DNA of 46,755 nucleotides from a virus (lineage: Duplodnaviria; Caudoviricetes). A model generated the notes under the pieces. The model was given only the letters and a program-made list of their open reading frames with translations. It searched no databases and was not told where the DNA came from. Shown in pieces: positions 17,217 to 44,982 of the stretch. The position numbers and the translations under genes are program-made. Positions within the stretch are counted from its first letter, which is position 1. Every line of letters starts with the position of its first letter. The stretch is taken from positions 1 through 46,755 of IMG/VR virus record IMGVR_UViG_3300005573_000133, one strand, 5' to 3'.

Positions 17217-17800
17217 TGACAGAAGAAGAAATCTATGAAATGTGGGATCAGTATGCGGACCTTCCGAAAATACTCATGGATGCTGGCGAGGACTTGGAGA
17301 GACCAGGTCTCATCGACACTCCAGAGAGATTCGGGAGGATGATGAGGAATGAGCTGCTTGTTGGTTATAGTATCCTTCCAGAGGAGGTTCTTTCTGCTAG
17401 TTGGGAAGATGAAGGTGGTGGTGTCAACGTATGTAGGAACATCACATTCACTTCACTGTGTGAACATCACTTGATGCCATTCTTTGGTACTGTTAGCCTG
17501 GGCTATGCGCCTGGGGGTTGGGTGTGCGGGTTGAGCAAACTCGCTCGACTTGTGGATTGCTTTGCAAGGCGTTTGCAGATTCAGGAGAGAATGACCAACC
17601 AGATAGCAGATGCTATAGCAGAGCATATCCATGACCCAGCTGATGCGAATGAAGGAAAACCAAAAGGAGTAGCTGTTATTGTAAAAGCAACACATCTGTG
17701 TTGCAAGGGTAGAGGAGTCAAGCAGCAGTGGATGGAATACGAGACCATCGCACTGCGTGGTGATGAAGCTAATCGTGTATTGAGGACACTCCAATGCTAA
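17198..17800 (+). CDS. folE: GTP cyclohydrolase I
   Basis: GLxDTPxR, SLCEHHLMPF, GLSKLAR, RLQIQER, HLC..RG. Confidence 0.95.
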   Translation: MDRSKIMTEEEIYEMWDQYADLPKILMDAGEDLERPGLIDTPERFGRMMRNELLVGYSILPEEVLSASWEDEGGGVNVCRNITFTSLCEHHLMPFFGTVSLGYAPGGWVCGLSKLARLVDCFARRLQIQERMTNQIADAIAEHIHDPADANEGKPKGVAVIVKATHLCCKGRGVKQQWMEYETIALRGDEANRVLRTLQC

Positions 17801-18645
17801 AGATATGCATGATCACACCGCCAGCTGACGTAGGACTCACATCTCTATTTCCTGGGAGGTTCTGCTTGGCACAGGTTGCCAAGGAACACAAGGAGTATGC
17901 AGATTACTTCAAAGGATGCAAAGATGTAATAATGGACAATGGCATGTATGAGGGGAAGCCATTGGAATGGTATGAGTACTCCGAGGTCATCTATCAAGTG
18001 CGTCCCTCGATAGTCATCGCACCAGATGACTTCCAGGATACATTTGAAGCGAGTTATGACAAAGCAATACAGTTCAGAGACTACATGCTAAGAACAGCAA
18101 CACTAGTGCCAAACAGTTACATGCCTGACATTATGTGGGTACCACAGGTAGGTAGATACAATGATGTATCCTTCGTTGACTTCATTGACTTTGTCAATGG
18201 TCAGAAGGATTTCGCCTCCATAGGTATCAACAAGCTGGTAGCACCAGCTCTGTTTGGTACTCCATGGGTGGGTGATTCCATGAGGGAGGTACTCAGGATA
18301 GCATTGGTGTCCAAGCTGGATACTAATCGCAAGTACATACACTGCTTGGGTATCACAGATACTCTGGGAGCACTGCGCGTTTATAACCAGCTTGGCGTAG
18401 AGTCTCTGGACAGTGCATCCTTCTACTGGCTTCCTTTCAAGGGGAAGCACATACAGAGGGATCTGGATTGGCGCATGATAGACTCAGAAGGTCGACCTCA
18501 AAACTTCTTCGAGTTAGAAGCGACCTCGGAGCAAGAACATGACATCGTTGAGTTCGCACAAAGAGTACAAAGCTTTCTTGACGGGAAGCACTCATTGGAC
18601 GGACCTGGACACCTACCCTATAGAATGCGTAGGAAACTCCAATAA
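17794..18645 (+). CDS. TGT-fold protein, putative DpdA-like deazaguanine DNA transglycosylase
   Basis: IMDNG, APD, VPQ, IHCLG, SLDSAS motifs typical of TGT-like TIM barrels; located between folE and the polymerase. Confidence 0.6.
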   Translation: MLKICMITPPADVGLTSLFPGRFCLAQVAKEHKEYADYFKGCKDVIMDNGMYEGKPLEWYEYSEVIYQVRPSIVIAPDDFQDTFEASYDKAIQFRDYMLRTATLVPNSYMPDIMWVPQVGRYNDVSFVDFIDFVNGQKDFASIGINKLVAPALFGTPWVGDSMREVLRIALVSKLDTNRKYIHCLGITDTLGALRVYNQLGVESLDSASFYWLPFKGKHIQRDLDWRMIDSEGRPQNFFELEATSEQEHDIVEFAQRVQSFLDGKHSLDGPGHLPYRMRRKLQ

Positions 18646-20409: not shown

Positions 20410-21003
20410 ATGGCATCGTTAGTACTATGCAGTGGCGGTGTAAAGTCTGCTCTGTTGGTTTGCTTGGCTCGGAGAGAAGAGGAAGTCCTCGACAACCTAC
20501 ATGTACTGTTCGTCGACCATGGACAAGCGTGCGTGGAAGGTGAACGCCAAAGTGCACACCGCATAGCAGACTACTACCACGGAAGGTATCACGAGTTAGC
20601 AATTCTTCAGCGTACGAAAGGTGAATGGAAACCTTTCGTCCTCTCAACCATTCTGATGCATGCTCTTATCTATGCGAAGGAGCATGGTATCAGATACACT
20701 TACTATGGAGCATGTAAGAGTCATGAGGGTAGGGAGTGGCAACTCCCTGCTCTCAAGAGAATACAGAACCTAGCTGACTTTGTACAACAAGAATGGGACC
20801 CATCTCTGAGAGCAGACTTCATTCAGGTAGGAGCACCTCTGATAGCCCTTACCAGAAAGAAGATATATCTGTACGCTAAGAAGATGGGTGTACCCTTGGA
20901 CCTAACATGGTCTTGTGAAGTGAGTAACACACTAACACAGTGTGGACACTGTCCATCCTGTGAGTTCAGAAAAGAAATGAGGTACTATGATATTGTCCAT
21001 TGA
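20410..21003 (+). CDS. Divergent second QueC-like PP-loop protein
   Basis: SGGVKS, DHGQ, APL, TWSC...CGHCPSC; lacks the VPxRN and YPDC motifs. Confidence 0.75.
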   Translation: MASLVLCSGGVKSALLVCLARREEEVLDNLHVLFVDHGQACVEGERQSAHRIADYYHGRYHELAILQRTKGEWKPFVLSTILMHALIYAKEHGIRYTYYGACKSHEGREWQLPALKRIQNLADFVQQEWDPSLRADFIQVGAPLIALTRKKIYLYAKKMGVPLDLTWSCEVSNTLTQCGHCPSCEFRKEMRYYDIVH

Positions 21004-30022: not shown

Positions 30023-31454
30023 GAATGTACTCAGGTTTGAGTATCTTCCTAAGCAGGGTCAGTTCTTCGAGAACTGTGACCGAGTCGTACACTCTGCATA
30101 TATAGGTGGCTTTGGTAGTGGTAAGACCTATGCGTTGTGCATACAAGCATTGCGTGCAGCAGCGCACTACGGTGCTGGTTCTCTAGGCTTAATTGGTGCA
30201 CCTACCTATAAGATGCTCTCTGATGTAACGCAGAGAACCTTTCTCAGGCTCTGTCCTCCTCAGTGGATTAAGGTCTATCACAAGAGTAGTAACAAGATCA
30301 TTCTCAAGAATGGTGCTGAAATCCTCTTTCGTTCACTGGAGAACGAAGAGAGATTGGCAGGTCTCACACTAGATTGGTGGGGTCTGGATGAGGTTGGCTC
30401 TGTAAAACTCGATACTTTCAGGATGTTGCAGGGAAGGATGCGTGGGAACCAGCGTTGTATTGGGTTCTGTGTAGGGAACCCCGCTGGTCCCACGCACTGG
30501 ACTTATGATTATTTTGTTGTAGAAGCACAGAAGAGACCTGAGAGTTATGCGCTGGTACAAGCACCTACACTGGAGAATGTCTTCCTCCCGAAGCAGTACA
30601 CAGAGGAAATGAAGGGTTCTTTCAAGGAAGGAACACCTTACTATCGCAGATATGTACTGGGAGAGTTCGTTGCATTTGAGGGTGCATACTGGGGTGACTT
30701 CGATTTGCGTCCCTATCCTGATGGATTGGTGTGTACAATCGATGATATTTGGAACAGTTCCATCCTCGATAAGAGCAGTAAATGGACATGGGGACGCGTG
30801 ATTGACTTCGGATTTGAGCATCCCTTCGTGTGTCTCTGGTATGTGTGTGATGGTCGAAAGATTATTTTCTTTGATGAGTACTATCAACGCCATCGTACAA
30901 TGAGAGAACATGGAGCAGCTATTCGTGCAAAGGATGTAGAACACTGGGAGAAGTATGCGTTCCCAATACCTCAGCATGCATACACAGACCATGATGCTCA
31001 GGCCAGGGCAGAGCTGGAGCATCTGGAACTTCCAGGAGTTGGCAGAGCGGGTATCTTTTGTGTGCCCGCAGAGAAGGAAGTGATGGATGGAATCCTCCTA
31101 GTACAGACATTGATACTAACTAGGAGGATCTTCGTTACGAAGAATTGTACACAAACCTTGAGGGAGATTCCTTCCTATCGTGCAAAGCCAATAGAGAAGT
31201 GTAAGGATGAGAAGCCCCTCAAGGAGAATGATGACTGTTGTGACTGCGTAAGAATGGCTTGTTCATGTGAGTTGGAGCATGTCGCACCCTGGAGGAGAGC
31301 TGAAGGTGCGCGAAGGATTCTGGGTGATCCTGAAGACATAAAGATCGAGGAGCTCCCCAGACCACCTGACCCCAACCGCATAGCAAACCCTGACATGCCC
31401 TACGTGAGGATCCAACATGGCATTGGAGCCTTTGACAAGACCCCGACCATCTGA
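30015..31454 (+). CDS. terL: Terminase large subunit
   Basis: GGFGSGKT Walker A, APTYKML, GLDE Walker B, GNP, DFGFEHP, DDCCD nuclease acids; directly upstream of the portal. Confidence 0.92.
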   Translation: MGENVLRFEYLPKQGQFFENCDRVVHSAYIGGFGSGKTYALCIQALRAAAHYGAGSLGLIGAPTYKMLSDVTQRTFLRLCPPQWIKVYHKSSNKIILKNGAEILFRSLENEERLAGLTLDWWGLDEVGSVKLDTFRMLQGRMRGNQRCIGFCVGNPAGPTHWTYDYFVVEAQKRPESYALVQAPTLENVFLPKQYTEEMKGSFKEGTPYYRRYVLGEFVAFEGAYWGDFDLRPYPDGLVCTIDDIWNSSILDKSSKWTWGRVIDFGFEHPFVCLWYVCDGRKIIFFDEYYQRHRTMREHGAAIRAKDVEHWEKYAFPIPQHAYTDHDAQARAELEHLELPGVGRAGIFCVPAEKEVMDGILLVQTLILTRRIFVTKNCTQTLREIPSYRAKPIEKCKDEKPLKENDDCCDCVRMACSCELEHVAPWRRAEGARRILGDPEDIKIEELPRPPDPNRIANPDMPYVRIQHGIGAFDKTPTI

Positions 31455-32898
31455 TAATGGGGATCAGCAAGCGCTACTGAAGGAGTATCAGCGCATTCGT
31501 GCGGATTATCTAGCACGAATGCAGACTAATACTGTAGCACCACCTATAACAGATGCTCATGGGTTTACCTGGAAGCAAGGGATTCCCCTCACTGAGCGGT
31601 GGGCTGGGTTTGATAAGGTATTCTGGACACTGATTGCGGGTGTAGTTACTGACCCTGACTACGCCCTCCGCAAGGATCCCAAGGTATACATGAGGATGCT
31701 GAGGGATCCTCAGATATATTACTGTTTGGAGGTTAGAAAGGCTGCTACTACTGGCCTCCCGTGGGTGGTGAGACCTCCAGATGATTTCATGAATGATCCT
31801 CAAGCATTGGAGTTTGCCAATGCAGCAGAGCGGAGGTTGAAGAAGATTAGCAACATCTCTGAGATGTTCTCTAATCTGATGGACGCTCTTTTGCCAGGTA
31901 TGGCGGTAGTTGAACTGGTTTGGGGACTGGATCCTGACTCAGGGGAGTATGTTGTGAAGGAACACTTCCCTGTGTGGAAGGACAGGTTTGTGTTCGATAA
32001 GGATGGGAATCTCCGCCTCAAGACTAGGAACTCACCTGTAACTGGTGAACCTGTACCGTCCTATAAGTTCATTCATCACATATTCAATGTAAGTGATGGT
32101 AGTTGGCTGCGTCCAGAGGAGATGGGATACTGCTACTTCGGTAAAGGTCTCGCAGATACACCTCTCTATCACTACTTCTACTTCAAAGTAGTGACGCTCA
32201 GATACCTACTCAAAGCGTTGGAGCAGTATGGTCTGCCCTTCAAGCTGTTGTATACTGGACCTCAGAATGCACTCCTCGCACAGAGGATGGCAGATATCAT
32301 GGCTGCACTGCAGAATGACAGTGTGGTGCAGGTACCTGGTAAGAAGGGAGAGGTGAATGTTGATGTAGTGAAGAGCACAGGTAGTGTTGATTTCTTCATT
32401 TCCTTCATTGAATACATAGACAGACTCATTACAAGAGCAATACTCGGTCAGGAGTTGATGACCGAGATGCCAGATGTAGGTAGCTATGCGGCTGCCAGGG
32501 TGCATCGTAGTGTCTTCATGCAGATTGTTGAGAGTGATAAGAATCAGTTGGAGGACACGATCAACAAGACACTGATGAAGTATGATGCAGCCCTCAATAC
32601 ACCGCAGCTCCCAGAAAAGGTACGACCCAGGTTTCTGTTCAAGAGTGCACCATCTACAGATGCTGCTGCCTTCCTGCAGGTGGTCAATGCTGCTATCAAT
32701 CTGGGTCTAGAAGTGTCTGAGGCTCAGATAAGAGAGGCTACAGGATTGAGAGAACCCTTCCCTGGTGAGGCAACTGTCTCTCAGCAGAAGATACAAATGA
32801 TGCAGATGATGATGGCTGGTGGAGGTCAGCCTAACAATGCCAGTACCGAACAGGAAGGAACAGCACAATCCAAAGTACATAAGAACGCTCGAAGGTGA
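31417..32898 (+). CDS. Portal protein, Mu gp29/DUF935-like
   Basis: DA...G.AVVELVW, GxGL, EQYGLP, ITRAILGQELMTE..GSYAAARVH. Confidence 0.88.
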   Translation: MALEPLTRPRPSDNGDQQALLKEYQRIRADYLARMQTNTVAPPITDAHGFTWKQGIPLTERWAGFDKVFWTLIAGVVTDPDYALRKDPKVYMRMLRDPQIYYCLEVRKAATTGLPWVVRPPDDFMNDPQALEFANAAERRLKKISNISEMFSNLMDALLPGMAVVELVWGLDPDSGEYVVKEHFPVWKDRFVFDKDGNLRLKTRNSPVTGEPVPSYKFIHHIFNVSDGSWLRPEEMGYCYFGKGLADTPLYHYFYFKVVTLRYLLKALEQYGLPFKLLYTGPQNALLAQRMADIMAALQNDSVVQVPGKKGEVNVDVVKSTGSVDFFISFIEYIDRLITRAILGQELMTEMPDVGSYAAARVHRSVFMQIVESDKNQLEDTINKTLMKYDAALNTPQLPEKVRPRFLFKSAPSTDAAAFLQVVNAAINLGLEVSEAQIREATGLREPFPGEATVSQQKIQMMQMMMAGGGQPNNASTEQEGTAQSKVHKNARR

Positions 32899-35800
32899 GC
32901 TCCGCCAGCATAAAGTACCTCTCAGGACGAGGTTGCAGTGGCTGAGCCGCGTGTTCGGTGGGCGTGGAGGATTGAAGTCTGAAGATTTGTATAGGATTTC
33001 TCAGAAAAGAAAACCTGCTGGACCAGTTTACATATATCCCTATGTGAAGAATGCACCACCTGAGGTGAACAGAATCTTGGAGGAGACATATAGAAGACAC
33101 AGGGAGGAGACGAGACCTCTCGTGGAGGCGGGAAAGTTGGACGAGAGGAAGGCAAAGACCATGGCAGCCATTGCAGCCTGGACAAATGTTAGGAAGGCAG
33201 GCTACAGAAAGGTGCATAAGATGCAACCCACCTGGGAGAAATATGCATATGGGATTCCACGACCTGGTAGTATGTCCGCCCCCTATACAAAGGTGTGGAA
33301 GAGCATGCTAAAGCATGTAAGTGAGAATCCAGCAGTATTCGGCCCTGAACGAGCGAGGGAATTGATAGTCAAGGCTCATAACGCATCAGCAAGAGCGAAG
33401 TTTGAGGTTCTGAAGGATGTAGCTGAGTTTCTACAAAAGAAGGGAGTGGATCTAGGGTCTCTTGGTGTACCCAGTCACATCATACAGGAGGTTGGAAAGA
33501 GAAGTGTCTCACAAAGTTGGAAGGTTCCAGCTGCTTTAGGTACTATGGGTGTCATTGGTGCGGTGGGTTTGGGTGCTTATGTTGGTTCAAAACTTCTGAA
33601 GAAGAGGGAGAATCCTCGTGTGTTGGATTATAGGCGGAGTTCTGGTAACTCTGCTAGATTAAAGGACACGAGGAATGTGGGGGAGTTTTTTATTCAACCT
33701 AGGGACCCCGAGCGTGTTAGGAAAATGTATATCAAGATAATGCAGCACTTGAGGAATTCAGGTGTGGCTATCCCAGGAGAGGAACAACAACAATATGCCG
33801 ACCCACTCAGTATTGCTCAAGGTTTAGTTCAAGCAGGTCTAGGTGGTACATCGTTTGGTGGTTCGATACCTAGTATTAGTAGTAGCAGTAGTAGTCGTAT
33901 TGCTCCAGAGGGTAAGCTAGCGAGTCTGGGTAAGGCGGTGCTTGGTATTGGTCTTGCTGGTGCGTTGCCTATAGCAGGTATCGCAACAGCACGTTTCTTG
34001 TCGCGTCTTTCGAAGGTTCACCCAGACCTTCCTGAGATAGAGATTGAAGATGAGAGACCAGACTATGCTTCATTGGAGGATGCTGTGACATATGCATTGA
34101 GTCCCTCCTCACCTTCATATTTCAGGAAAAAGTTGTACAAGGTCTTAACGCGTGCATTGAAGTATGCGGAGGGGTTTGGTGCAACTAGCATTGCGAAGCA
34201 GTTGGGTAGGATGGAAGGTGCTGCACTGGCTCATTCTCCCGCTAGTACAGCAATGAAGACGCGTTTCATTGGTAGGCTTGGATGGGCTGTCTCAGTTGCA
34301 CAGCCTCAGTTACTGAAGCTCATGCCTAAGGATGTTCCCGAGTCTCCAATATTGAACTATGCAGTACCAAGACTAAGAACATTGAGCTACCTTTCACAAG
34401 AGAAGAGGATGGCAGCTGCCAATGAGCTAAGTAAGCGCGTTCGCAAGGCGATATTGCTCGGGACTTGGCAGCCTCCAGACCCAGAAAGGGGAGTAAAGGA
34501 ACCAGAGACACTTAGGGATTTCCAAGAAATAGCCAGGAGCCTCAAGAAAGGAGATGTCTCCAAAAGAGTTCCTCTATATGGTGCATGGAAGATAGCAGAC
34601 TACAGCCAAAATTCCTTAGGAAAAAGTTTCTGGGATAGTCTGGAAAAACTTCCACAGGATACATTTGATCATATTCAAATTCATCTGAATGGGGGGCTTC
34701 CATCCACACTCTTGACACCAGATGAATATCTAACATTGCATAAGATATGGCACCAAACGGTGGAAAGTCATCATAAGAAGTATCATGACATGATCATGAA
34801 ATTGCATCAGCAGGGAGCAAAGTATGGGCTAACTGGCCCCATATTGGTCTATGGGGCACGATCACCAGAACTAATAGCTAAGAGGTTGATAAATAGAGCT
34901 ATTAGGGGAGTCTTTAGGCCTCCTCCACCCACACCTCCTCCTGAGATGTCTATTAGCAGAAGAATGCTTACTAGACTACCACCACCACCACCTGCTAAAC
35001 TTCGGTCACTTCTACCTATAGCAGGTGTCGGTGCAGCTGCTACGGGTTTAGGTGCTCTTATGGGTTGGAGGCTAGGACGCCGAAGAGACTACTCGCTGAA
35101 GTCTCCAGTGTTGCGTTATATGTCGCCAGAGAAGAGAAGAGCTGCTATTGATACGCTGCATAAGCGCATTATAAGGTCAATGACAGTCGGACACTGGCTG
35201 CCTAACGAGGGAGTAAAGAGACCAGAGACACTCCCCGACTATCTAAAAATAGTAAGACAATCTAGGGTATGGAAGAAGCATGGACTCCCTACCACAGAAG
35301 AGGACTTAATTAGAACTGTCATACCTACTGTTCTGCAAGATCCAAGACACCCCATAAATGAGCATCTTGTCCATAATCTGAAGCGTCTCCCAGGAGGCAT
35401 GCTGAAACGCGTTCGAGCACACGTAAGAGGTGAGGGTCCACTAGGACGAAGGTTTAGGAGGATGTTGACAGGGGCGTGGGCTCAGAGTGTGAAAGACTTT
35501 CATAGAGAGAGTCTTAAGAGTAGTATTGAGAGATTGCATGACCCAGCCTTAAGAAGATTGCAGAAGGTAACAAGAACAGTAGAGGTGCCTAAGATAGTCA
35601 AGGTAACTAAGCCAGTATCTGCGCTGCCTCTGCTGGGGCTTGGTGCGGCTCTTGCGGGTGCTGGTGGTTTGGGGTCTTACTTTGTAGGTAGAATGATTGA
35701 GAAGGAGCGACAGAGAAGAGCGCTCAAGACTATGTTCGCGTTGGATACTCCTCCTACTAAGTATGATGTGTCTGTTCCTGTTATACTTACCGCCAGCCCT

Positions 35801-36118
35801 GCTGCAATAGGTCTCGGTGGCTTACTAGGTGGATTGTACGCTAAACACAGAGCGAGGGTACGCCTTCTAGATAAGATGATAAATGAACGCAGACCTTCTT
35901 GGAGGCAGAACTACTCATTTGCAGGTGTGGGTATGGGTGGATTTTCATTTGAAGATCTCTTAGGGGACGTATATAAGATTGCCAGGAATAAAGCTTTGAA
36001 GGATATAGGTCTCCATGCAGGGATACCTGCAGGTCTTGGTGCGGGGAGTTTTCTGACTTTCTTTCTCGCTAAGAGACATGCGCTGAAGAAGAGACTTCAG
36101 GCGGGTAAATCATTATAA
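32837..36118 (+). CDS. Large basic mosaic head-region protein (ChaB-like N-terminal domain, 6 Gly-rich TM modules, internal duplication)
   Basis: About 1093 aa between portal and protease. AAWTNVRKAGYRK..W resembles ChaB; repeated GxxxG hydrophobic stretches followed by basic tails. Confidence 0.7.
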   Translation: MPVPNRKEQHNPKYIRTLEGELRQHKVPLRTRLQWLSRVFGGRGGLKSEDLYRISQKRKPAGPVYIYPYVKNAPPEVNRILEETYRRHREETRPLVEAGKLDERKAKTMAAIAAWTNVRKAGYRKVHKMQPTWEKYAYGIPRPGSMSAPYTKVWKSMLKHVSENPAVFGPERARELIVKAHNASARAKFEVLKDVAEFLQKKGVDLGSLGVPSHIIQEVGKRSVSQSWKVPAALGTMGVIGAVGLGAYVGSKLLKKRENPRVLDYRRSSGNSARLKDTRNVGEFFIQPRDPERVRKMYIKIMQHLRNSGVAIPGEEQQQYADPLSIAQGLVQAGLGGTSFGGSIPSISSSSSSRIAPEGKLASLGKAVLGIGLAGALPIAGIATARFLSRLSKVHPDLPEIEIEDERPDYASLEDAVTYALSPSSPSYFRKKLYKVLTRALKYAEGFGATSIAKQLGRMEGAALAHSPASTAMKTRFIGRLGWAVSVAQPQLLKLMPKDVPESPILNYAVPRLRTLSYLSQEKRMAAANELSKRVRKAILLGTWQPPDPERGVKEPETLRDFQEIARSLKKGDVSKRVPLYGAWKIADYSQNSLGKSFWDSLEKLPQDTFDHIQIHLNGGLPSTLLTPDEYLTLHKIWHQTVESHHKKYHDMIMKLHQQGAKYGLTGPILVYGARSPELIAKRLINRAIRGVFRPPPPTPPPEMSISRRMLTRLPPPPPAKLRSLLPIAGVGAAATGLGALMGWRLGRRRDYSLKSPVLRYMSPEKRRAAIDTLHKRIIRSMTVGHWLPNEGVKRPETLPDYLKIVRQSRVWKKHGLPTTEEDLIRTVIPTVLQDPRHPINEHLVHNLKRLPGGMLKRVRAHVRGEGPLGRRFRRMLTGAWAQSVKDFHRESLKSSIERLHDPALRRLQKVTRTVEVPKIVKVTKPVSALPLLGLGAALAGAGGLGSYFVGRMIEKERQRRALKTMFALDTPPTKYDVSVPVILTASPAAIGLGGLLGGLYAKHRARVRLLDKMINERRPSWRQNYSFAGVGMGGFSFEDLLGDVYKIARNKALKDIGLHAGIPAGLGAGSFLTFFLAKRHALKKRLQAGKSL

Positions 36119-36122
36119 TGAG

Positions 36123-36626
36123 GTGATTATTATGAAGTGGCCACCACCGGAGTTAGGGTTTGATCCTGCGTACATTCTTTATCCTGGTATGCTAGGTGCT
36201 GGTGTCCTAGCTGGTTTTCTGCATGGTAGGCGTAGGTTAAGGGATGAGCTTGTAGATAGGATGATAAGAGAGCGACCTCTTCAGTGGAGGCGGAAGTACT
36301 CACTTTCTTATGCGCATACGACTCCTTCGGATTTGACAGGGGAGGAGCTTTCTAGGAAGCTGGCTATCCGAGGGGGAGTAGGTTTAGGTCTTTTTGCTGG
36401 AGGTCTCTTGGGTGCTTACCTCCTTAGAAAACGCTACTTGGAGAAGAAACTCAGGGAAGGTAGGTACAGTTTGAGAGGTAGGAGGAGGTGGATGTACTCG
36501 AATGGCGTAGCAAAGTATGTGGTTCCCTGGTCTCTATTGAGTGGTTTGGCAGGTGGAGGTCTGGGTTTTGTAGGTGGTAGTCTGTTTCAGCGTGAGAGAC
36601 AGGCTAAAGTAGTGAGGACATGGTAA
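36123..36626 (+). CDS. Three-module Gly-rich TM plus polybasic protein
   Basis: The first two modules align with the last two modules of the 32837 ORF. Confidence 0.65.
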   Translation: MIIMKWPPPELGFDPAYILYPGMLGAGVLAGFLHGRRRLRDELVDRMIRERPLQWRRKYSLSYAHTTPSDLTGEELSRKLAIRGGVGLGLFAGGLLGAYLLRKRYLEKKLREGRYSLRGRRRWMYSNGVAKYVVPWSLLSGLAGGGLGFVGGSLFQRERQAKVVRTW

Positions 36627-36627
36627 T

Positions 36628-37029
36628 ATGCCTTTCAAGAGTGAAGCACAACGTCGTTGGATGTGGCTTAACCATCCTGAGATGGCAGCTCGGTGGGAAG
36701 CACACACACCGAAGGGAAAGAAACTTCCTAAGTATGTTAGGAAGTACAAGAGACGCTATGACTTTGATGATGAAGGATGGAGGACAGGTATTGAGATAGG
36801 CAAGCAAGAGAGTATGTTGGGGACGAAGGTCGAACCTCTACGTGAGTCCTTGCTAAGGTCACAGTATGGACCTAGTTTTGACCTTGGTAGGAGATGGGGT
36901 AGGAGGCACAAGTTCACTAGTCCTAACAACATCATTGCCAAGGCTGCAGGTATGTGGAATGCAGCTAAGATGAGAGTGCTTCCGAACCTGACACCTCTCT
37001 CTGCTATTGATGATTATGAGGTATTCTAA
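36628..37029 (+). CDS. Basic phage protein with MPFKSxAQRR N-terminus
   Basis: MPFKSEAQRRWMWLNHPEMAARWEAHTPKGKKLP, a short motif I recognise from other phage head regions. Confidence 0.65.
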   Translation: MPFKSEAQRRWMWLNHPEMAARWEAHTPKGKKLPKYVRKYKRRYDFDDEGWRTGIEIGKQESMLGTKVEPLRESLLRSQYGPSFDLGRRWGRRHKFTSPNNIIAKAAGMWNAAKMRVLPNLTPLSAIDDYEVF

Positions 37030-39413
37030 TGAATCCTCTGGAAGTGCAATTGTTGATGCAGTTTCCTTTCCTGCAAAGTATGCCAGAGCAGTTGAGGAGT
37101 CTCTGGATTAGTTCCCTGCTCAGTTCTCAGCAGGAACCTGTTAAGTATTGGAGAGGCCTAGAACATGGAACAGATGCCTACATCCGCCTTGTGTCACAAC
37201 TGTCGAATCTTCCAGAGGGAGACCCAAAGGCATTACAGACAATCGAAGCTATCAAGGGATTGGACTCTAGTCTGAGGAAGGGTACTTGGTCTGTTAAGGA
37301 GGGGAGACAGAGATCACTTTGGATACCATCACCTGAGGGAGGTAAGTTCAGAGATTTCTCGAAGTGGACCGAGGACCCTGTGCTCAGGAAACTGGTGAAG
37401 AAAGCAGTGCATACTAGGACTAAGGAACCAGAAAGGATTTGGGAGAGGATTAGGACATATGGAGATATAGCATACCATCCTCGTCGCAAGAATCCCTTTC
37501 CGCGGGAGTACATCAATGCACTAGCAATGATTGCTGGTCGTTCTGCGAAGGATCCATATGCGAAGGAGGGCTTGGAAAGACTGCAGAAGATAAAGGAAGT
37601 GTATCCTGAGATACCAATACCAATGCCATGGAAGGAAGGGAAGACTTTCAGTGGTATGGAAGACCTCTTCAGGGTAGGTTCTGGAGCTCAGTGGAAGGTT
37701 CGGCGAGCTTTCCACCCCTTGCTAAATTCTCGCAGGAGACAGAAGCTATTGGAACATGTTTCCAAGGTTGGTGAGTTCGTTGGTCTTCCAGAGAAAGGAA
37801 AGAGTTATGCAGCACCACTTCCGAAGGAGAAGTGGAAGCTTCCTCCCACAGGATGGCAGGCTAAGGGTCATGCATATGCAGACTTAATAAAGATATTGTC
37901 TGGAAGGAAGACGAGGGATCCTATCGCAGCGATGGCAATATCTAATATTCATACGATGGGATTCCCTGATGCTGTGATAAAGGAAGTTAAGGGTGGTAGG
38001 TATGCAAACATAAAGTTCAAGAAGCCAGATGTTGAGAAGGATCTTGCCAAAGTATTGAGAGTGCATAGTAGGGACCCTCTAGCGGCGTTGGGACATCTGA
38101 AAGAACTTGTTGATATAGAGGAGGGGACGAATGAGGAGTACAGTCTGAGAGAACCAAAGGCTACTTGGTATCTCAAGAATCTGATAGCACTCTCTCAGAG
38201 GGGTTGGTCTCAGAGTAAAGAGGACAAGATGAGGTGGAGGCTTCCTCACGCGTGGATACCAGAGAGGAATGCGAGAGGTGAGTATCCTAAGTTCCGAGAA
38301 GTAGTGCCAGCAGAAGCGTTCCGCCAAGCACAGATACTACTGAGGAAGAATACCTCAGAAGAGAGGAGAGAGCAAGCGGTCCAGAAACTGAAAGAGCTAC
38401 TGCTGCCCTCCCCAGACCAGGACCGCATAGCACCAGAGACCTATGGTTACAGACCAAAATGGCATGAGTATCATAGGATGGTATCCTTCCTACAGGGGAT
38501 GTCACATGATGACCCCAAAGCAATTGAGATGTGTAGGAAGATTGAGGAGATGTTTGGTACTGAGGCTGTACCTCTCCCAGATGATAGGACGAAGAAGTTC
38601 CCTGAAGTAGATACTAGCAGAGTGACTAAAGCACTAGCACATGCAATTCGTAGTCGTGCTCCTGCTGAGAAGAAGAAGGGGGTATGGGCAAGGATAAAAC
38701 AGAAGATGATCAAGACTATTGGTTATGAACCTATGGGTTCTATTGTTAGAGGTGGTCCTCCTCCTTCGGCAGACCCATACAAGAAAGGGTTTGAAAGTCT
38801 GCTAGAGAGTATGGAAGTTGCTCTTCCTCATGCACCAGGACAAGTACCAAGGAAGTTAGGAAAGATAGTACCTGGTTGGGGTGGTAGTTGGGGTTCGTCT
38901 GTCATAGGTCCTGGTCAATACCATCCAGAAGATGTGAAGATAGGTGAGGGCTTCCATATAGCCAAGTTCAAGTCTAGGGAGGCTATGTTGGCTTATGCAG
39001 ATGGAGTGGCTGAGGGAATGACAAACCCGAATCCTCCCCCACCGCAGCAGCAACAGCAGCCATTCTGGAGGAAGAAAAAGAAGTGGGATTTGGGTAGGAT
39101 ACTCAGATTGGAACCTGTAGCAACTGCTCTGAGGGGTATGACTAGGGAAGCTCTGAGCAGGTTGAATACCTATGTTCCTCTTCCTAAGGTGACTGTGGAT
39201 AAGACTCCTGTGAATCCTAGGGGTTACTTCAAAGGATTCTCGGGTAGGTCGAATCTTGAACTACAGCTCATGAAGAATAGGTTGGAACACATGGCAGCGA
39301 GAGAAGGTATGGACACAGCACGTCGGGAAGAGCTTAGGAAGCATATAAGTAGGTTGGATATTGAGTTGAATGCGCGTAAGAATGCTGCGCCCTCATATGG
39401 GCCTTACTTCTAA
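37029..39413 (+). CDS. Large basic protein with degenerate ~100 aa repeats (putative internal virion protein)
   Basis: 794 aa, K/R-rich; recurring Y-x2-hh-x2-h-x-(G)-x4-DPxA pattern. Confidence 0.7.
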   Translation: MNPLEVQLLMQFPFLQSMPEQLRSLWISSLLSSQQEPVKYWRGLEHGTDAYIRLVSQLSNLPEGDPKALQTIEAIKGLDSSLRKGTWSVKEGRQRSLWIPSPEGGKFRDFSKWTEDPVLRKLVKKAVHTRTKEPERIWERIRTYGDIAYHPRRKNPFPREYINALAMIAGRSAKDPYAKEGLERLQKIKEVYPEIPIPMPWKEGKTFSGMEDLFRVGSGAQWKVRRAFHPLLNSRRRQKLLEHVSKVGEFVGLPEKGKSYAAPLPKEKWKLPPTGWQAKGHAYADLIKILSGRKTRDPIAAMAISNIHTMGFPDAVIKEVKGGRYANIKFKKPDVEKDLAKVLRVHSRDPLAALGHLKELVDIEEGTNEEYSLREPKATWYLKNLIALSQRGWSQSKEDKMRWRLPHAWIPERNARGEYPKFREVVPAEAFRQAQILLRKNTSEERREQAVQKLKELLLPSPDQDRIAPETYGYRPKWHEYHRMVSFLQGMSHDDPKAIEMCRKIEEMFGTEAVPLPDDRTKKFPEVDTSRVTKALAHAIRSRAPAEKKKGVWARIKQKMIKTIGYEPMGSIVRGGPPPSADPYKKGFESLLESMEVALPHAPGQVPRKLGKIVPGWGGSWGSSVIGPGQYHPEDVKIGEGFHIAKFKSREAMLAYADGVAEGMTNPNPPPPQQQQQPFWRKKKKWDLGRILRLEPVATALRGMTREALSRLNTYVPLPKVTVDKTPVNPRGYFKGFSGRSNLELQLMKNRLEHMAAREGMDTARREELRKHISRLDIELNARKNAAPSYGPYF

Positions 39414-39468
39414 GGTTAAAAAGAGTTTTTAGTTGCTCCCTAGAAAGAAACCTTTTTCATATAGAATT

Positions 39469-40038
39469 ATGAGTTTCGAGATAAAGAGAGAGAAGGATGG
39501 GTCCTATACTATAAGGGATGTACCCATCTTCAAAACTCACAGTGATAGGGGCTTTGAGTGTAATGAAGAGTGGATGCGAGATGCAATTCGCAACCACCAG
39601 AAATTCAAGGAAATGGGTTATCGTCCAATGATAATCATTGGGCATAATCAGAAGGGGACAGAGAAGAAAGCAGTTGGGTTCCTAGACAACCTCAGGTTTG
39701 ATCCTCAGTCGGGTATTTTGCATGCTGACTTGGTGAAATTACCTGAGGCGTTGGTGAATGAAATAAAACAGAACGCATGGCCGAACAGGTCAGTAGAAAT
39801 ACTACCTAAGTCTCGTAGGATATTGGCATTGGCTCTTCTGGGTGGTACAACATCACACTTTGCTCTTCCTCAGATGGTTTATGAGAGAGGTGGTGAGCAA
39901 AGTAGATGGCGTTCATCACCTCGTCTGATAGAAGAGGAAGAGCTGGTTTGCTATGGCGGGCCCCCCTCACCACCTACACTGCGAGACTTTCTGTTTGTAC
40001 AGACAACTGCAGCTTGTAGGGGTCTGATAAGGAAGTAG
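39469..40038 (+). CDS. Mu-like prohead (capsid maturation) protease
   Basis: PMIIIGH, AVG, ADL, RSVEI, LALALLG pattern (His/Ser protease); lies between portal and scaffold/MCP. Confidence 0.75.
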   Translation: MSFEIKREKDGSYTIRDVPIFKTHSDRGFECNEEWMRDAIRNHQKFKEMGYRPMIIIGHNQKGTEKKAVGFLDNLRFDPQSGILHADLVKLPEALVNEIKQNAWPNRSVEILPKSRRILALALLGGTTSHFALPQMVYERGGEQSRWRSSPRLIEEEELVCYGGPPSPPTLRDFLFVQTTAACRGLIRK

Positions 40039-40039
40039 T

Positions 40040-40318
40040 ATGTACACAGATGAGGAGAAGATTGAGATATACAGTACCATTCGTGCAGTGCTAGAATCTC
40101 TGAAGAGGTTCAAGCCTACGACGGTACAGAAGGCGGTTGTGGAGACCTTTCTCCCAACTGCTCTGGATAAGGTGAGGGAAGCACATAAGAAAGAGTTGTA
40201 CGAGTTGGTAGAAGCAGCTATCAAGGATGGTCTGGATGTGGATTCAGACATAAGAATCCTTGAGTATGATCTGCCCTTGGCTAGAGATGGAGATGGTACT
40301 GTCTGTCTTCATCCATGA
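40040..40318 (+). CDS. Hypothetical protein
   Basis: 92 aa, adjacent to the protease. Confidence 0.55.
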   Translation: MYTDEEKIEIYSTIRAVLESLKRFKPTTVQKAVVETFLPTALDKVREAHKKELYELVEAAIKDGLDVDSDIRILEYDLPLARDGDGTVCLHP

Positions 40319-40329
40319 CTGGAGGTAAT

Positions 40330-42381
40330 ATGTCCAATCCCAATTGGTTCTTGCGAATGGCTGGTGGACTGGAAAAGTTCATTGGCAGACATCCAAGGCT
40401 GCAGTCGATGCAGAATTGGATGTCAGCTCATCCAAAATCCACCCTTGGCATTGGTTTGGGTGTACCCCTTGGTGCGTTGGGTCTGAAACGCTTTCTGTGG
40501 GGACCGCGTGAAGGGTATGCTTTGGATCCCGATGATATTGAGTCTTACGGTGGGATGTGGGAGCAACTGAAAGGACTTGCCAAAGCGCATCCTTGGAAGA
40601 CTACTGGGGCATCCCTTGGTCTGGCTGGTATTCCTCTGGGTTTGTGGGGACTCCGTCAGTACATAAGGAAGCGGAGGGGTTATGCCCTTGATCCCTACGA
40701 AGAAGCTCTCCTGAGTTATGGTGAGCCTGAGGATGATGATGATGACGATGATGGTGATGATGGAGAGGATGCATACGCTCTGGATGATATTCCTGAGATG
40801 TATGCTGAGGCTCCAGCCGCAGCCGCAGCTGCCGCTCCAGGGTATTGGCAGCAGTTGAAACAGATGTTTAAGACACGCCCTTGGAAGGCTAGTGCGACTG
40901 CATTGGGAATAGCTGGAGTCCCAGTAGGAACTGCATTCCTCATTGATTATTTGAGGCGTCGTCGTCGTGGCTATGCCTTGGATGATCTCCCTGAGATGTA
41001 TGCTGAAGAGGCTGCTGCAGCCGCAGCGCCAGGGTATTGGCAGCAGTTGAAGCAGTTGTTTAAGACTCGTCCCTGGAAGGCCAGCGCCCTCGGACTTGGG
41101 ATGGCTGGAGTCCCAGTAGGAACTGCGCTTCTTATTGATTATCTGAGAAGGCGTCGTCGTGGCTATGCGTTGGATGATATTCCTGAAATGTATGCTGAAG
41201 ATGTTCCAGGAATGTGGCAACAGCTGAAGGCTATGGCCAAAGCGCATCCTTGGAAGGCAGGAGCGACTAGTCTTGGTTTGATGGGCCTTCCTCTGGGAAC
41301 TGCTCTTCTTATTAACTACCTGAGACGCCGTCGCAAGTATGCTCTGGACGACCTCCCCGAGTTGTACGCAGAAGAGGCTGCTGCCGCGGCTGCTTCTCCT
41401 GGGATGTGGCAACGACTGAAGACCATGCTTAGGGAGCATCCTTGGAAGACTGGTGGTATTGGGCTTGGTTTGGCTGGAATCCCAGTAGGAACTGCAGCTA
41501 CCATTGCGGCGATAAGGAGACATAGGAAGAAGAAGGGATATGCTCTGGATGACCTTCCCGAATTGTACGCTGAAGCTGCGGCTGCACCTGGGATGTGGCA
41601 GCAGTTGAAAGCTATGGCCAAAGCACATCCCTGGAAGACTGGTATTTCTGGACTTGGCCTGGCAGGACTTCCTCTGGGAACTGCTCTTCTCATTAACTAT
41701 CTGAGGCGTCGTCGTCGCGGTTATGCATTGGATGATATTCCTGAGATGTATGCTGAAGAGGTCCTGAGACAGGCAGGAATGCAGAATCCTACAGCTCAGT
41801 TTGATCCTGCGGGACTGCCTACAGGACAGGAAGGCATGAGTCAGGTTGTCTCTCAGATTGATCCCTCACTCATGGGTGCTGACTACGATGAAGAGACAGG
41901 ACTCGAGAGTGATCCTGGAGATCCTGATAATGAATTCATCGAGCCTGTAGATAGGGAAGCTAGTGACCAGTTCGCTTATGCGGGTGAGGATCCTGTCCTC
42001 TATGACCTGCAGCGTGAGGTTGGTCAGTTGAAGGCTGCGAATGCACTTCTGCAGGCCTCACGTCAGTATGAGGAACTGAAGAACTATCTCCTCGAGCAGA
42101 AGAGAGGTGGTGCTCCTGTAGGTGACATAGAGCAGACAGTGGAGTATCTGATGAGTCAGACACCTGACCAGGTTGAGCAGTTCAAGGAAATGCTTGAGTC
42201 TGCTCCGAAGGTACTGACTACGAGAATGACCTATGATACTCCTATAAATGATAACACAGTGTCGTTTGATCTGCAGGATTATGAAACGAACAGGGAGATT
42301 TACTCGCGGCTGGGCGTCCGACCTGAGGACCTTCAGTTCGCGAGGTTTCTTCGTTCGAATCAGAGTCCGAATGAGCAGTAA
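40330..42381 (+). CDS. Scaffold-like protein with an N-terminal tandem array of membrane-peptide repeats
   Basis: GGAGG SD; 7 repeat units, then an acidic region and coiled coil (LQREVGQLKAANALL); directly upstream of the decoration and MCP genes. Confidence 0.75.
   Translation: MSNPNWFLRMAGGLEKFIGRHPRLQSMQNWMSAHPKSTLGIGLGVPLGALGLKRFLWGPREGYALDPDDIESYGGMWEQLKGLAKAHPWKTTGASLGLAGIPLGLWGLRQYIRKRRGYALDPYEEALLSYGEPEDDDDDDDGDDGEDAYALDDIPEMYAEAPAAAAAAAPGYWQQLKQMFKTRPWKASATALGIAGVPVGTAFLIDYLRRRRRGYALDDLPEMYAEEAAAAAAPGYWQQLKQLFKTRPWKASALGLGMAGVPVGTALLIDYLRRRRRGYALDDIPEMYAEDVPGMWQQLKAMAKAHPWKAGATSLGLMGLPLGTALLINYLRRRRKYALDDLPELYAEEAAAAAASPGMWQRLKTMLREHPWKTGGIGLGLAGIPVGTAATIAAIRRHRKKKGYALDDLPELYAEAAAAPGMWQQLKAMAKAHPWKTGISGLGLAGLPLGTALLINYLRRRRRGYALDDIPEMYAEEVLRQAGMQNPTAQFDPAGLPTGQEGMSQVVSQIDPSLMGADYDEETGLESDPGDPDNEFIEPVDREASDQFAYAGEDPVLYDLQREVGQLKAANALLQASRQYEELKNYLLEQKRGGAPVGDIEQTVEYLMSQTPDQVEQFKEMLESAPKVLTTRMTYDTPINDNTVSFDLQDYETNREIYSRLGVRPEDLQFARFLRSNQSPNEQ
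40516..41757 (+). repeat. In-frame tandem coding repeats, about 160-200 bp units
   Basis: Unit YALDD(I/L)PE(M/L)YAE-An-PG(Y/M)WQQLK..(H/R)PWK..GLxGxPxGTA..YLRRRRRG; variation is largely synonymous or conservative. Confidence 0.92.
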
Positions 42382-42410
42382 TAACAATGGTAAGACGGTA
42401 AGGAGGATAT

Positions 42411-42848
42411 ATGGCTCTGACAGCGAATGTAGGTTCTAACCTACAAGCCAAGATGGGCGACATCCAGGCGTACACTGTAGGTACAGGTGCTAACATCTAC
42501 AGAGGTGCGCTGGTAGCGATTCGCTTGACTGATGGTTGTGCATACCAAGCAGTCAACGATGTCAATGACGAGTATAAGCAGCTCATTGTTGGCTATGCGT
42601 TGGAGGCAAAAACATCGGGAGAGGTACGCGTGCGTCGTGATGTGAAGTTGCGGCTGAACTTCAATGGCGTGATTTCACCCACTGTAGTAGGTCGGTTGGC
42701 GTGCCTCTACGATGATGAGACAGTTCAGTTGTATGACCCTACTAAATGTAGAGTAGTGGTGGGGCGAATCTCAGAGATTACAGGAAATCAGGTCTATGTG
42801 GACCTGAGAGAACGCCCCAACCGCATAGCAACGGGACTTTATGACTGA
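42411..42848 (+). CDS. Capsid decoration/cement protein (DUF2190-like), copy 1
   Basis: IYRGALV, GYA, DDETV, VVVGRI, VYVD; upstream of MCP. Confidence 0.7.
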   Translation: MALTANVGSNLQAKMGDIQAYTVGTGANIYRGALVAIRLTDGCAYQAVNDVNDEYKQLIVGYALEAKTSGEVRVRRDVKLRLNFNGVISPTVVGRLACLYDDETVQLYDPTKCRVVVGRISEITGNQVYVDLRERPNRIATGLYD

Positions 42849-42858
42849 GGAGTAAACT

Positions 42859-43854
42859 ATGGCTGGTGGCAATCTTGGTAGTTTTGTAAATGCGAAGCTG
42901 AAGGGCGATGTCCTCAGCTTCCCAGTGAAAGCGAATACTACCATCTACAGAGGTGCTCCTGTCGCTCTGGACAGTACGGGCTACCTTGTGATGGCTAGTG
43001 ATACCAGTGGTCTCTATTTCCAGGGGATTGCTGAGGAAGGCGTTGCAGCTGCTGATGTAGTGGCTGGTACCACCAGAGTGAGGGTACGACGCCATGGCAT
43101 CTTCAAGATGAAGTTGGCGAATACTGCTGCAATACCTACTGTGACTGGTGCACGCATCTTCATGCACACAGCACAGGGTAGCAGTACCGACTATTTGGTG
43201 GATACCGTAAGTAATGTATCCAATGGCATCTTCGTTGGTACCTGCGTGAAGCATGGTGCTGATTCGGAGTCAGCTGGAAGCAATTCTACTGAGGTGTGGG
43301 TGGATATAACACCTTCGACCTATCCTGGACAGCTTTCTACAACTGCTCCTTATCAGTTGCCTCTCTCAGAGTTCAGGAAGCCAGATGCCATTAAGGATGT
43401 TCTGGGTGATACTGGTACTGGTAATTATCTGGGTCTGGCTGATGACCCTGCGGGGTATGCTCTCACCACGAGTGCTGTTTCTGGTGGGACTGCAACACGC
43501 AGTGCGTCGTTCGTGTACACAGTACCGAGCGATTACAAGGCTGGTACTAATATAACAGTCAGGATACGCGCAAAGGTGAGTGCTACACCAGGAACCAGCG
43601 CGACCATAGATGCTGCATTCAAAGCCATCTCTGATGGTGCTCTGGGTAGTGATTTGGTTGCGACGAATGCACAGAACCTCACCACTGATTATGCTAACTA
43701 TGATTTTACCATAACTGGTACCTCACTGACGCCTGGTGCGTTGTGTATCCTGACTGTGACAATTGCAATTACTACAACCGATGCAGTTACTGGTACGATT
43801 GCAAAAGTTGAAATGCGGCCGACCTGCTGGGTGCAGGGCGGTGTTACTGGTTGA
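42859..43854 (+). CDS. Capsid decoration protein copy 2 with an additional C-terminal domain
   Basis: N-terminal PVKANTTIYRGAPV, FQGIAEE, VRVRRHG, VWVDI, paralogous to 42411; Thr/Ala-rich beta C-domain. Confidence 0.7.
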   Translation: MAGGNLGSFVNAKLKGDVLSFPVKANTTIYRGAPVALDSTGYLVMASDTSGLYFQGIAEEGVAAADVVAGTTRVRVRRHGIFKMKLANTAAIPTVTGARIFMHTAQGSSTDYLVDTVSNVSNGIFVGTCVKHGADSESAGSNSTEVWVDITPSTYPGQLSTTAPYQLPLSEFRKPDAIKDVLGDTGTGNYLGLADDPAGYALTTSAVSGGTATRSASFVYTVPSDYKAGTNITVRIRAKVSATPGTSATIDAAFKAISDGALGSDLVATNAQNLTTDYANYDFTITGTSLTPGALCILTVTIAITTTDAVTGTIAKVEMRPTCWVQGGVTG

Positions 43855-43926: not shown

Positions 43927-44982
43927 ATGCTTCCATTCGATCTTGGTATTGTTGAGCGTGGTGTCCGAGGTATCTTTGCCCGCGAATTCCTTACGCGGCA
44001 AAGAGTAGCAAAGTACACTAAGTTGTGTACTGTTGTTGACTCGGACAAGGAAGAAGAGAAATACGCGATGATCTCCACTCTGCCTAATCTGGCAGAGATG
44101 AAGGATGAGCGTGTTCTCTCTGGATTCAGTGAATACAGCTACACGATCAAGAACAAGGTCTATGCGACTGGTATCAAGGTGCCGCGTAGATTGTTCGAGT
44201 ATGATCAGACTGGACAGCTGAGGACTCTCATACAGAGTCTTGCTTCTCGTGTCGCTAACTTCCCTGATCAGCTTGTGTGGCAGCTGATTAAGACTAATGG
44301 GACTTGTTACGACAAGAAGAACTTCTTTGGTACTGACCATGACCTGGGTGATGGTACTAGCCAGATCAACACAATGGATGGTCATCAGACCAATACACTC
44401 ATTCAGGGCAGTACGAAGAACAACAGAGATGACTGCATAGCAGCCTTCCAGCTTGACTTGGTCAATGCCAAGGCTGCACTGCTCGCTCTGAAGGATGACA
44501 GAGGACTGCCCTGGCATGATGATGCTGCTCCTGAGGGATTGGCAATTCTTTGTCATCCCAGGAATGAGTTCTTCGTCAGGACTGCCATCGAAGCCACAAT
44601 GATCAGTGATACTGGTAATCTAACGATGAAGACAGTTGGTCAGGTCATCACCACTAACTACGATGAACCTTTCAAAGATGATAGTGGTGTGGTGAGGTAT
44701 GGTACTTGGTATCTGTTCAAGCTTGATACACCCATTCAGCCCTTCATCTTCCAGAGGTTTGGTCCTAAGGTGCAGTTCCCTGATCCCATTCCTGAAGCAG
44801 ACCAGAGTGCTCTGCAGGCCCTCTCAAGTGTTGAGATTCAGAGTGTGATGCGTACTGGGCAAAACATCTCTGAATGGACCTTCTTCAATGATGAGTTCCT
44901 GTTTGGTGCGAGGGTGCACTACTCAGCTGGTTATGGTATGTGGCAGAATGCCATCAAGGTGAAAGCTAGTGACTACACTTGA
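43927..44982 (+). CDS. Major capsid protein, Mu gpT-like
   Basis: S.KEEEKY, YTIKNKVY..GIKVPR, DQLVWQL..GTCYDKKNFFGTDH, WYL, PFIFQ, FLFG.R...GYGMWQ. Confidence 0.9.
   Translation: MLPFDLGIVERGVRGIFAREFLTRQRVAKYTKLCTVVDSDKEEEKYAMISTLPNLAEMKDERVLSGFSEYSYTIKNKVYATGIKVPRRLFEYDQTGQLRTLIQSLASRVANFPDQLVWQLIKTNGTCYDKKNFFGTDHDLGDGTSQINTMDGHQTNTLIQGSTKNNRDDCIAAFQLDLVNAKAALLALKDDRGLPWHDDAAPEGLAILCHPRNEFFVRTAIEATMISDTGNLTMKTVGQVITTNYDEPFKDDSGVVRYGTWYLFKLDTPIQPFIFQRFGPKVQFPDPIPEADQSALQALSSVEIQSVMRTGQNISEWTFFNDEFLFGARVHYSAGYGMWQNAIKVKASDYT

Follow-up and report, generated by a model that had tools for sequence, protein, structure and literature searches.

Tandem cationic peptide units in the scaffold gene of a phage with a Mu-like head module: a candidate protease-released cargo of the prohead

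Why should a phage scaffold gene encode, ahead of its assembly core, a series of short cationic peptide units separated by acidic spacers? The question is raised by a virus record of the Caudoviricetes (IMGVR_UViG_3300005573_000133), whose whole stretch of 46,755 nucleotides, here called the window, carries a Mu-like head module and provides all positions given below. In its scaffold gene, seven such units stand in tandem, and a reading made from the sequence alone had proposed that they form a prepro-peptide polyprotein cut after tyrosine by the neighbouring prohead protease. In this work, we follow up that proposal across the related phages, and we assign a probability of about 40% to a reading in which the peptides are cut out within the prohead, probably stay with the DNA, and reach the host membrane.

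The array and the scaffold that carries it

As called, the scaffold open reading frame (ORF) spans 40315-42381 (688 aa); judged from the sequence, its most plausible start is the Met codon at 40330, behind GGAGGT, which gives a protein of 683 aa. Six units marked by (H/R)PWK lie within 40552-41712, preceded by one degenerate N-terminal unit. Unit borders were set by splitting after each Tyr that precedes Ala, Ser, or Gly, which yields seven cationic pieces of 45-63 aa, each net +6 or +7; acidic pieces of 9-19 aa lie in between, and a 209-aa acidic C-terminal part follows. The features are as follows, hydropathy being the best 19-residue Kyte-Doolittle mean:

40321..40326, + strand: Shine-Dalgarno sequence (GGAGGT) before the scaffold start, stronger than at any other in-frame start
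40330..40518, + strand: unit 0 (degenerate), 63 aa, net +6
40549..40683, + strand: unit 1, 45 aa, net +7, hydropathy 0.92
40684..40803, + strand: extended acidic spacer that includes an Asp run and three more Tyr sites
40804..40974, + strand: unit 2, 57 aa, net +7, hydropathy 1.67
41002..41166, + strand: unit 3, 55 aa, net +6, hydropathy 1.71
41194..41340, + strand: unit 4, 49 aa, net +6, hydropathy 1.54
41368..41541, + strand: unit 5, 58 aa, net +7, hydropathy 1.80
41569..41724, + strand: unit 6, 52 aa, net +7, hydropathy 1.56
40975-41001, 41167-41193, 41341-41367, 41542-41568, and 41725-41751, + strand: five 9-aa acidic spacers, net -3 each, with Tyr on either side
41752..42381, + strand: acidic linker and scaffold core, net -25, matching the relatives' profile

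Each full unit opens with an amphipathic helix, which leads through a (H/R)PWK hinge into an uncharged, Gly-rich hydrophobic run of 18-22 aa (16-22 aa over all seven units) and closes with a basic tail; the six are 45-87% identical to one another. The spacers carry charges of -3 to -13, and the whole array, 474 aa long, sums to net +8. Built from the seven units, a profile necessarily recognises its own members (E 4e-23 to 9e-33), and the best control protein reaches E 7.5. The sequence-only reading is borne out in placing six full units and a degenerate one here. Two details of that reading need narrowing. The spacer motif that it gave to every unit, ALDD(I/L)PE(M/L)Y, occurs exactly six times, the first two spacers being variants, one of which precedes a 19-aa Asp run; and a basic tail closes the full units, whereas the degenerate unit lacks the Arg tail. 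The seven-fold array was seen only in the window and in P0001, a protein 94% identical. A predicted four-copy complex of unit 6 scored 0.02 (mark 0.42) and was not used either way, two units queried against the ESM Atlas gave no usable match, and the aligned unit DNA offered no stretch of sufficient conservation for a nucleotide scan.

The array is not an assembly artefact, because contigs of two sequencing runs (X1 and X2, either of which may be the source of this DNA) cover 39300-42600 without a gap, the split into protease, 92-aa ORF, and scaffold is retained in the divergent strain X3, and P0001 has the same seven units. The X1/X2 contigs and strain X3 likewise rule out assembly frameshifts as the origin of the three-way split. 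Translation of the array, which the sequence-only reading had presumed, is supported by the predominance of silent changes in the second strain: 40 of the 101 strain differences were listed and 32 scored (four were left out for an alignment gap and four from X1/X2), and 28 of these 32 are silent in the scaffold frame, with 4 replacements, whereas 28 would alter an antisense ORF. The ratio of replacement to silent change (pN/pS) is 0.15-0.67 in all 15 pairs of full units, that is, below 0.7, and P0001 retains 24 of 24 array tyrosines across 40 differing columns. On these patterns of substitution, the array is translated and under purifying selection. The 401-aa antisense ORF was discarded as a shadow, the strain changes being silent in the sense frame and replacing in the antisense one, and a strong downstream scaffold start was rejected as well, since only four-base sites occur (41836 and 42151); a weak downstream start may exist. 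As a separate observation, X1 and X2 depart from the window within unit 6, at three bases close together (41695-41701), where they carry the sequence of units 2/3, possibly through gene conversion within the array.

The gene is identified as a scaffold by the C-terminal part of the 683-aa protein, for which a profile built from 47 relatives gives E 4e-63; this supports the proposed fusion of the array to a scaffold-like C-terminus. In a structural model of one relative, P0079, this part consists of a long helix and short helices, the long helix starting at a conserved Tyr that lies near 42001 in the window. The 92-aa ORF, a separate gene in the window, weakly resembles the N-terminal helix of the relatives' scaffold. 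In most relatives, protease and scaffold form a single ORF with an internal in-frame Met, preceded by AGGAG in 12 of 14 loci; this internal start lies upstream of the cationic segment described below, which is thus part of the scaffold. Such a start inside the protease gene is found in the relatives, whereas three distinct ORFs take its place in the window. Protease and scaffold are also separate in another genome, L034 (7209-8897), whose scaffold bears several cationic segments. The scaffold had no tblastn match in 50,697 phage records, and its hits to Pfam DUF6338 and PSRP-3 and to the NCBIfam RseA, sigma, and CD1375 families were dismissed as repeat-summed noise, no single stretch passing.

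The protease and tyrosine edges across the clade

The neighbouring gene had been taken for a prohead protease, and its predicted fold agrees. A model built from 14 aligned sequences (mean predicted local distance difference test score, pLDDT, 87) aligns with T4 gp21 (5jbl; VIA Z 8.8, root-mean-square deviation 3.4, 120 residues aligned) and with the varicella-zoster virus protease (1vzv; VIA Z 8.7), the next unrelated entry reaching 4.8. BFVD returned 42 matches at E<=0.001, many of them named maturation proteases, and Foldseek against PDB reached E 0.02 only. Two His (39538 and 39643) and one Ser (39790) are invariant in 14 of 14 proteases and were assigned, by analogy with this fold, as the probable catalytic residues. 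Among phage records, the protease reaches only proteases of Corynebacterium phages (E 3e-4). The Pfam family Mu-like_Pro gave no hit; there is only an Atlas lead of 0.86 for the scaffold part of P0079.

A capsid protein search gave 67 matches at E<=1e-40, and 54 metagenome loci were retrieved, this record among them. The comparison of related protease-scaffolds covered 47 sequences, a non-exhaustive set drawn from the 7,999 best candidates within a length range of 274-874 aa. A charge scan blind to Tyr located one cationic cassette in 42 of the 47. Its N-terminal edge is a Tyr in 35 of 42 (background 0.20) and its C-terminal edge in 38 of 42 (background 0.23). The protease domain itself ends at a Tyr in the window (39880-39882) and at Tyr (29) or Phe (10) in all 39 of the 47 that could be parsed, the next residue being variable. 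Across 38 measured cassettes (41 of the 47 sequences parsed), the median is 75 aa and net +13 with about 45% Gly+Ala, and an uncharged Gly/Ala run (median 17 aa) directly precedes the basic tail in nearly all; Trp is rare. Three distant relatives (L004, L059, and L062) have no cassette on reading, nor does a contig labelled Geobacter that encodes a distant protease (36%). A stand-alone gene of such units lies downstream of the scaffold in L008 (584-1033). Near residue 4 of the capsid protein (window 43927-43945, P0003-P0066), Tyr (39) or Phe (11) precedes Asp in 50 of 64 relatives, a possible trimming site.

The window array is therefore a local seven-fold expansion of a cassette that is single in most relatives, and similar units also recur many times in the upstream head genes, so that the system is wider than the scaffold gene to which it had been confined. 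The gene order is terminase, portal, four basic genes without a curated family, protease, 92-aa ORF, scaffold, two cement-like genes, and capsid:

31417..32898, + strand: portal protein, Mu type (PF06074, E 4.5e-65)
32819..36118, + strand: 1099-aa basic polyprotein at the MuF position, net +91, no Pfam or PHROG match
36123..36626, + strand: 167-aa gene of three units, paralogous to the end of the 1099-aa protein (E 1e-12)
36628..37029, + strand: free-standing Met-Pro-Phe-Lys-Ser module (phrog_1375, E 0.0025)
37029..39413, + strand: 794-aa basic protein of repeated modules common to relatives, net +46, with no hydrophobic unit
39469..40038, + strand: prohead protease with the gp21/assemblin fold (phrog_3894, E 1.5e-6)
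40040..40318, + strand: 92-aa acidic ORF (relatives' scaffold profile, E 7.5e-4)
42411..43854, + strand: two cement/decoration-like genes (phrog_1731, PF09956)
43927..44982, + strand: major capsid protein, Mu gpT family (PF10124, E 1.2e-36)

Units of this kind follow one another along the genes between portal and protease. In the 1099-aa protein, Gly-rich hydrophobic units with basic tails occur near 33530, 33935, 35009, 35630, 35780, and 36005, between globular modules common to relatives. Over the window and nine loci, 55 units were counted in 33 head-region proteins (3.5 per 1000 aa), compared with 2 in 26 control proteins (0.2 per 1000 aa). Eight of the 55 end at a stop codon and 17 at Tyr-Ala/Ser (7.5 expected), and Tyr is followed by Ala or Ser in 104 of 441 cases in the head region (72 expected) and in 54 of 381 in the controls (48 expected). 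A 40-aa module starts with Met-Pro where it is a free gene (the window and L034, 2 of 2) and with Tyr-Pro where it is embedded (L001, L003, L010, and L027, 4 of 4), and for two further modules a Tyr immediately precedes the module in 4 of 5 and in 5 of 6 instances. No Pfam domain was found above cut-off in the head-region proteins of the window and its close relatives, and the MuF domain had no match in the close clade. HEXXH zincin-like motifs occur in head-region polyproteins of four loci (L001, residue 144; L019, 277; L022, 385; L036, 130). Contig joints at 33793-35570 (85% likeness, uncertain) suggest loss, gain, or replacement of modules in the 1099-aa polyprotein among strains; X3, for example, is 163 codons shorter on balance, in frame, at 34366-34919. 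These joints showed no clear coincidence with Tyr sites.

Cleavage, retention, and the membrane

Taken together, Tyr at module edges throughout the clade and a translated array make the proposed prepro-peptide polyprotein likely, and, on the strength of the sequence comparisons, the protease probably cuts the scaffold after Tyr within the prohead. Retention of the released peptides in the head is moderately supported, and membrane action at entry weakly to moderately so. Under the reading given about 40% above, the scaffold C-terminal core would carry the array into the prohead at scaffold copy number, while the acidic spacers would neutralise the peptides and keep the chain soluble. After cutting behind the tyrosines inside the prohead, the small acidic pieces would exit and the +6/+7 peptides would remain on the packaged DNA. 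At ejection, each peptide, from its amphipathic helix through the Pro hinge and the marginally hydrophobic helix to the basic tail, would enter the cytoplasmic membrane and aid DNA entry. The dose would have been raised here by seven-fold copying of one unit, where relatives combine one scaffold cassette with many diverse upstream units. A broader proposal is more tentative: the clade as a whole would load the head with protease-released, membrane-inserting peptides (about 16 encoded units here, seven of them on the high-copy scaffold), whose ejection would open or remodel the host membrane so that DNA can pass; alternatively, they would line a lipid-containing core in an HK97-fold capsid.

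Several observations weigh against excision and membrane delivery, the first group concerning cleavage. A Tyr stands immediately before the Arg tail in five of six full units and another at the start of the amphipathic helix in two, and cutting at either would alter the products. The upstream link between units and Tyr is modest, being nil within 12 residues (12 of 45, p 0.83); within 18 residues, Tyr gives p 0.007, yet Gln, Phe, and Met give p 0.01-0.05. The sequences compared are related (15-30 identity clusters) and not independent, so that p-values overstate. In the P0079 model, where the cassette is mostly disordered (residues 226-257 with pLDDT <50), both edge tyrosines lie in short beta-strands, and part of the edge-Tyr conservation may thus be structural. 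These strands, together with Tyr-Pro being an unusual bond for a serine protease, favour an array that works as an intact domain, its tyrosines structural or capsid-binding. We consider this improbable, because the window flanks have shrunk to 9-aa spacers, without flanks of the P0079 type, that nevertheless keep Tyr at both ends, because Tyr also closes the protease domain and precedes unrelated modules, and because the start of the free 40-aa module coincides exactly with the Tyr position of its embedded form.

A second group concerns the membrane. As a rule of thumb, a transmembrane segment has a 19-residue mean hydropathy of at least 1.6. The best values of the window units range from 0.92 to 1.80, and the mark is reached in 3 of 7 window units, 2 of 38 relatives' cassettes (median 1.10), and 11 of 45 upstream units; comparison peaks in the window are 2.7-3.0 for a true membrane protein, 1.2-1.6 for the tape measure, and 1.55 for the soluble capsid protein. 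The expected hydrophobic helix of about 20 aa is present as an uncharged Gly-rich run of similar length, and the view of the units as conserved transmembrane helices is not supported, since the relatives' cassettes are mostly too weakly hydrophobic. Marginal hydrophobicity would fit a segment kept soluble until deployment. As a side observation, in the tape measure protein (3-1850), Arg-Arg-Gly-Tyr, an ending shared with the scaffold units, comes after a hydrophobic stretch rich in Gly.

What survives best across the clade is positive charge (median +13 per 75 aa) with about 45% Gly+Ala, not hydrophobicity, and the upstream proteins are themselves very basic (K+R 19%). Both features suit products that stay in the head purely as protamine-like counter-ions or fillers for DNA, without any membrane role. 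A counter-ion, however, needs no uncharged Gly/Ala run, yet the run is kept in nearly all cassettes and, in the window, is rich in Leu and Ile and under purifying selection; we therefore regard this explanation as distinctly unlikely.

Retention is also where the known systems disagree. The T4 head retains scaffold fragments (115 of 576 gp22 and 139 of 341 gp67 copies; PMC9026906), whereas in mature SPN3US heads most propeptides were undetected (PMC10052503), a further point against the proposed payload; peptides of +6/+7 should stay on DNA better than acidic pieces. That propeptides generally exit the head is in keeping with a role in assembly only, in which the units would fasten the prohead core to the cytoplasmic membrane or bind its parts to one another by hydrophobic and charge contacts, Tyr cuts would free the prohead, and the peptides would be discarded. 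T4 and SPN3US proheads form on the inner membrane and remain there without proteolysis (PMC9026906, PMC10052503), and the units are present in the scaffold and in all head-region genes, as such a role would have it. The units, though, all share one orientation and have basic residues flanking the hydrophobic stretch, which would make a poor multi-spanning anchor, and a tether requires one copy, as opposed to seven plus about nine upstream. The absence of a cassette from 5 of the 47 scaffolds speaks against an assembly role and equally against our preferred reading, since it makes the cassette non-essential at that position. Membrane association, according to one review (PMC3185693), was not shown for phages besides T4. 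On balance, a purely assembly-related function appears rather unlikely.

The sequence-only reading had further noted a resemblance to the ElaB/YqjD tail anchor. If the likeness were functional, freed peptides might insert as anchors, form dimers, and shut down the ribosomes of the host. The conserved C-terminus of DUF883 proteins is marked by Pro-Trp, a helix rich in Gly, and an Arg tail (10.1101/2024.08.16.608256), and two units score 15.9 and 15.1 bits against PF19029. These scores lie under the 27-bit cut-off, and the same loose search matches 12 of 14 control genomes. The N-terminal DUF883 domain (PF05957), required for ribosome inactivation (10.1101/2024.08.16.608256), has no match at E<=1 in the record, and at E 0.05 the DUF883 family matches 0 of 45 related head-region proteins. 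Moreover, the anchors of YqjD, ElaB, and YgaM are C-terminal, whereas the window units, of which 6 of 7 share the Pro-Trp hinge, Gly-rich helix, and basic tail, are internal and repeated. The link is consequently not upheld, and such mimicry is highly improbable.

Genomic setting, known systems, and significance

The window begins within the tape measure gene and stops in a likely tail chaperone. To judge from the gene order of L001 (12605-16227), only a few kb seem to be missing, in conflict with a completeness estimate of 38%; contigs of several relatives measure 61-64 kb. No relative of the capsid protein was found in GTDB contigs, and no RNA data set was listed as containing this DNA. Pfam scanning of 52 window ORFs revealed no endolysin or cell-wall hydrolase family, which may reflect a host with little peptidoglycan or the incompleteness of the record; the membrane proteins encoded at 27709 and 28319 have the look of lysis proteins. 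Elsewhere, 9059-9391 matches Cas_VVA1548 (PF09652, E 1.3e-11, above cut-off), which we take to be Csx16, a proposed ring nuclease, and its product could act against type III CRISPR. Genes of a 7-deazaguanine pathway (two QueC, PTPS/QueD, a radical SAM QueE-like protein, and GTP cyclohydrolase I) lie at 9400-10104, 16193-18645, and 20410-21003; a 283-aa gene at 17794 had no match, and we can only guess that it encodes the DNA-inserting enzyme of the pathway.

T4 gp21 cuts after Glu, and the window protease has the same fold. Like gp21 and SPN3US gp245, which cleave scaffold and internal proteins many times, always at the one short motif, with some scaffold fragments staying in the T4 head (PMC9026906, PMC10052503), it would act repeatedly at a single type of site; gp245, however, also cuts after Glu (PMC10052503), whereas the site predicted in the window is Tyr. 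T4 and SPN3US mostly lose N-terminal propeptides, while the window encodes internal tandem cationic amphipathic peptides under selection. In phage Mu, the protease and scaffold are named gpI and gpZ. The window shares with Mu the type of portal and capsid, and its relatives share a fused protease-scaffold with an internal start and Shine-Dalgarno sequence, an arrangement described for Mu-like phages (PMC4378225); the window differs in the cationic cassette within the scaffold, in the gene split in three, and in the lack of a Pfam Mu-like protease match. The polyvalent proteins of Iyer et al. 2017 (PMC5512222) are likewise encoded next to portal and head genes, have a modular and shuffled make-up, and are held to be packaged and then processed; HEXXH motifs in four related loci add to the likeness. 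The putative payload of the window, however, consists mainly of short cationic Gly/Ala peptides rather than enzyme domains, and the word "transmembrane" does not appear in the main text of that paper. By analogy, the locus may work like proteolytic maturation of the T4/SPN3US type joined to cargo at the MuF position (PMC5512222).

Multi-copy antimicrobial peptide precursors alternate cationic peptides with acidic spacers, and the window resembles them in its +6/+7 units between spacers of -3 to -13 at predicted protease sites. In adenovirus (proteins VI and VII/X), a maturation protease primes a particle-held, membrane-disrupting amphipathic peptide (10.1101/857581). Both systems are eukaryotic, and the analogy is one of layout, no homology being claimed. 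A literature search, covering mostly open-access main texts, yielded no description of a scaffold with excisable cationic peptides, and the accessible text of a phi24B preprint (10.64898/2026.04.10.717836) and of the review PMC3185693 contained nothing similar.

Scaffolds are usually seen as disposable, and this one appears to be, in addition, a high-copy carrier of selected short peptides. The findings touch on two general questions, namely how the DNA of long-tailed phages passes the cytoplasmic membrane and what becomes of scaffold fragments after maturation. With products of 45-63 aa, short enough for synthesis, and a protease domain of 190 aa, both key steps can be tested without phage culture. 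A Tyr-specific prohead protease, if confirmed, would show how to divide the head polyproteins, so far without annotation, of a widespread clade of uncultured phages, and membrane delivery, if true, would place this system beside adenovirus protein VI as its counterpart in phages, with the layout of an antimicrobial peptide precursor.

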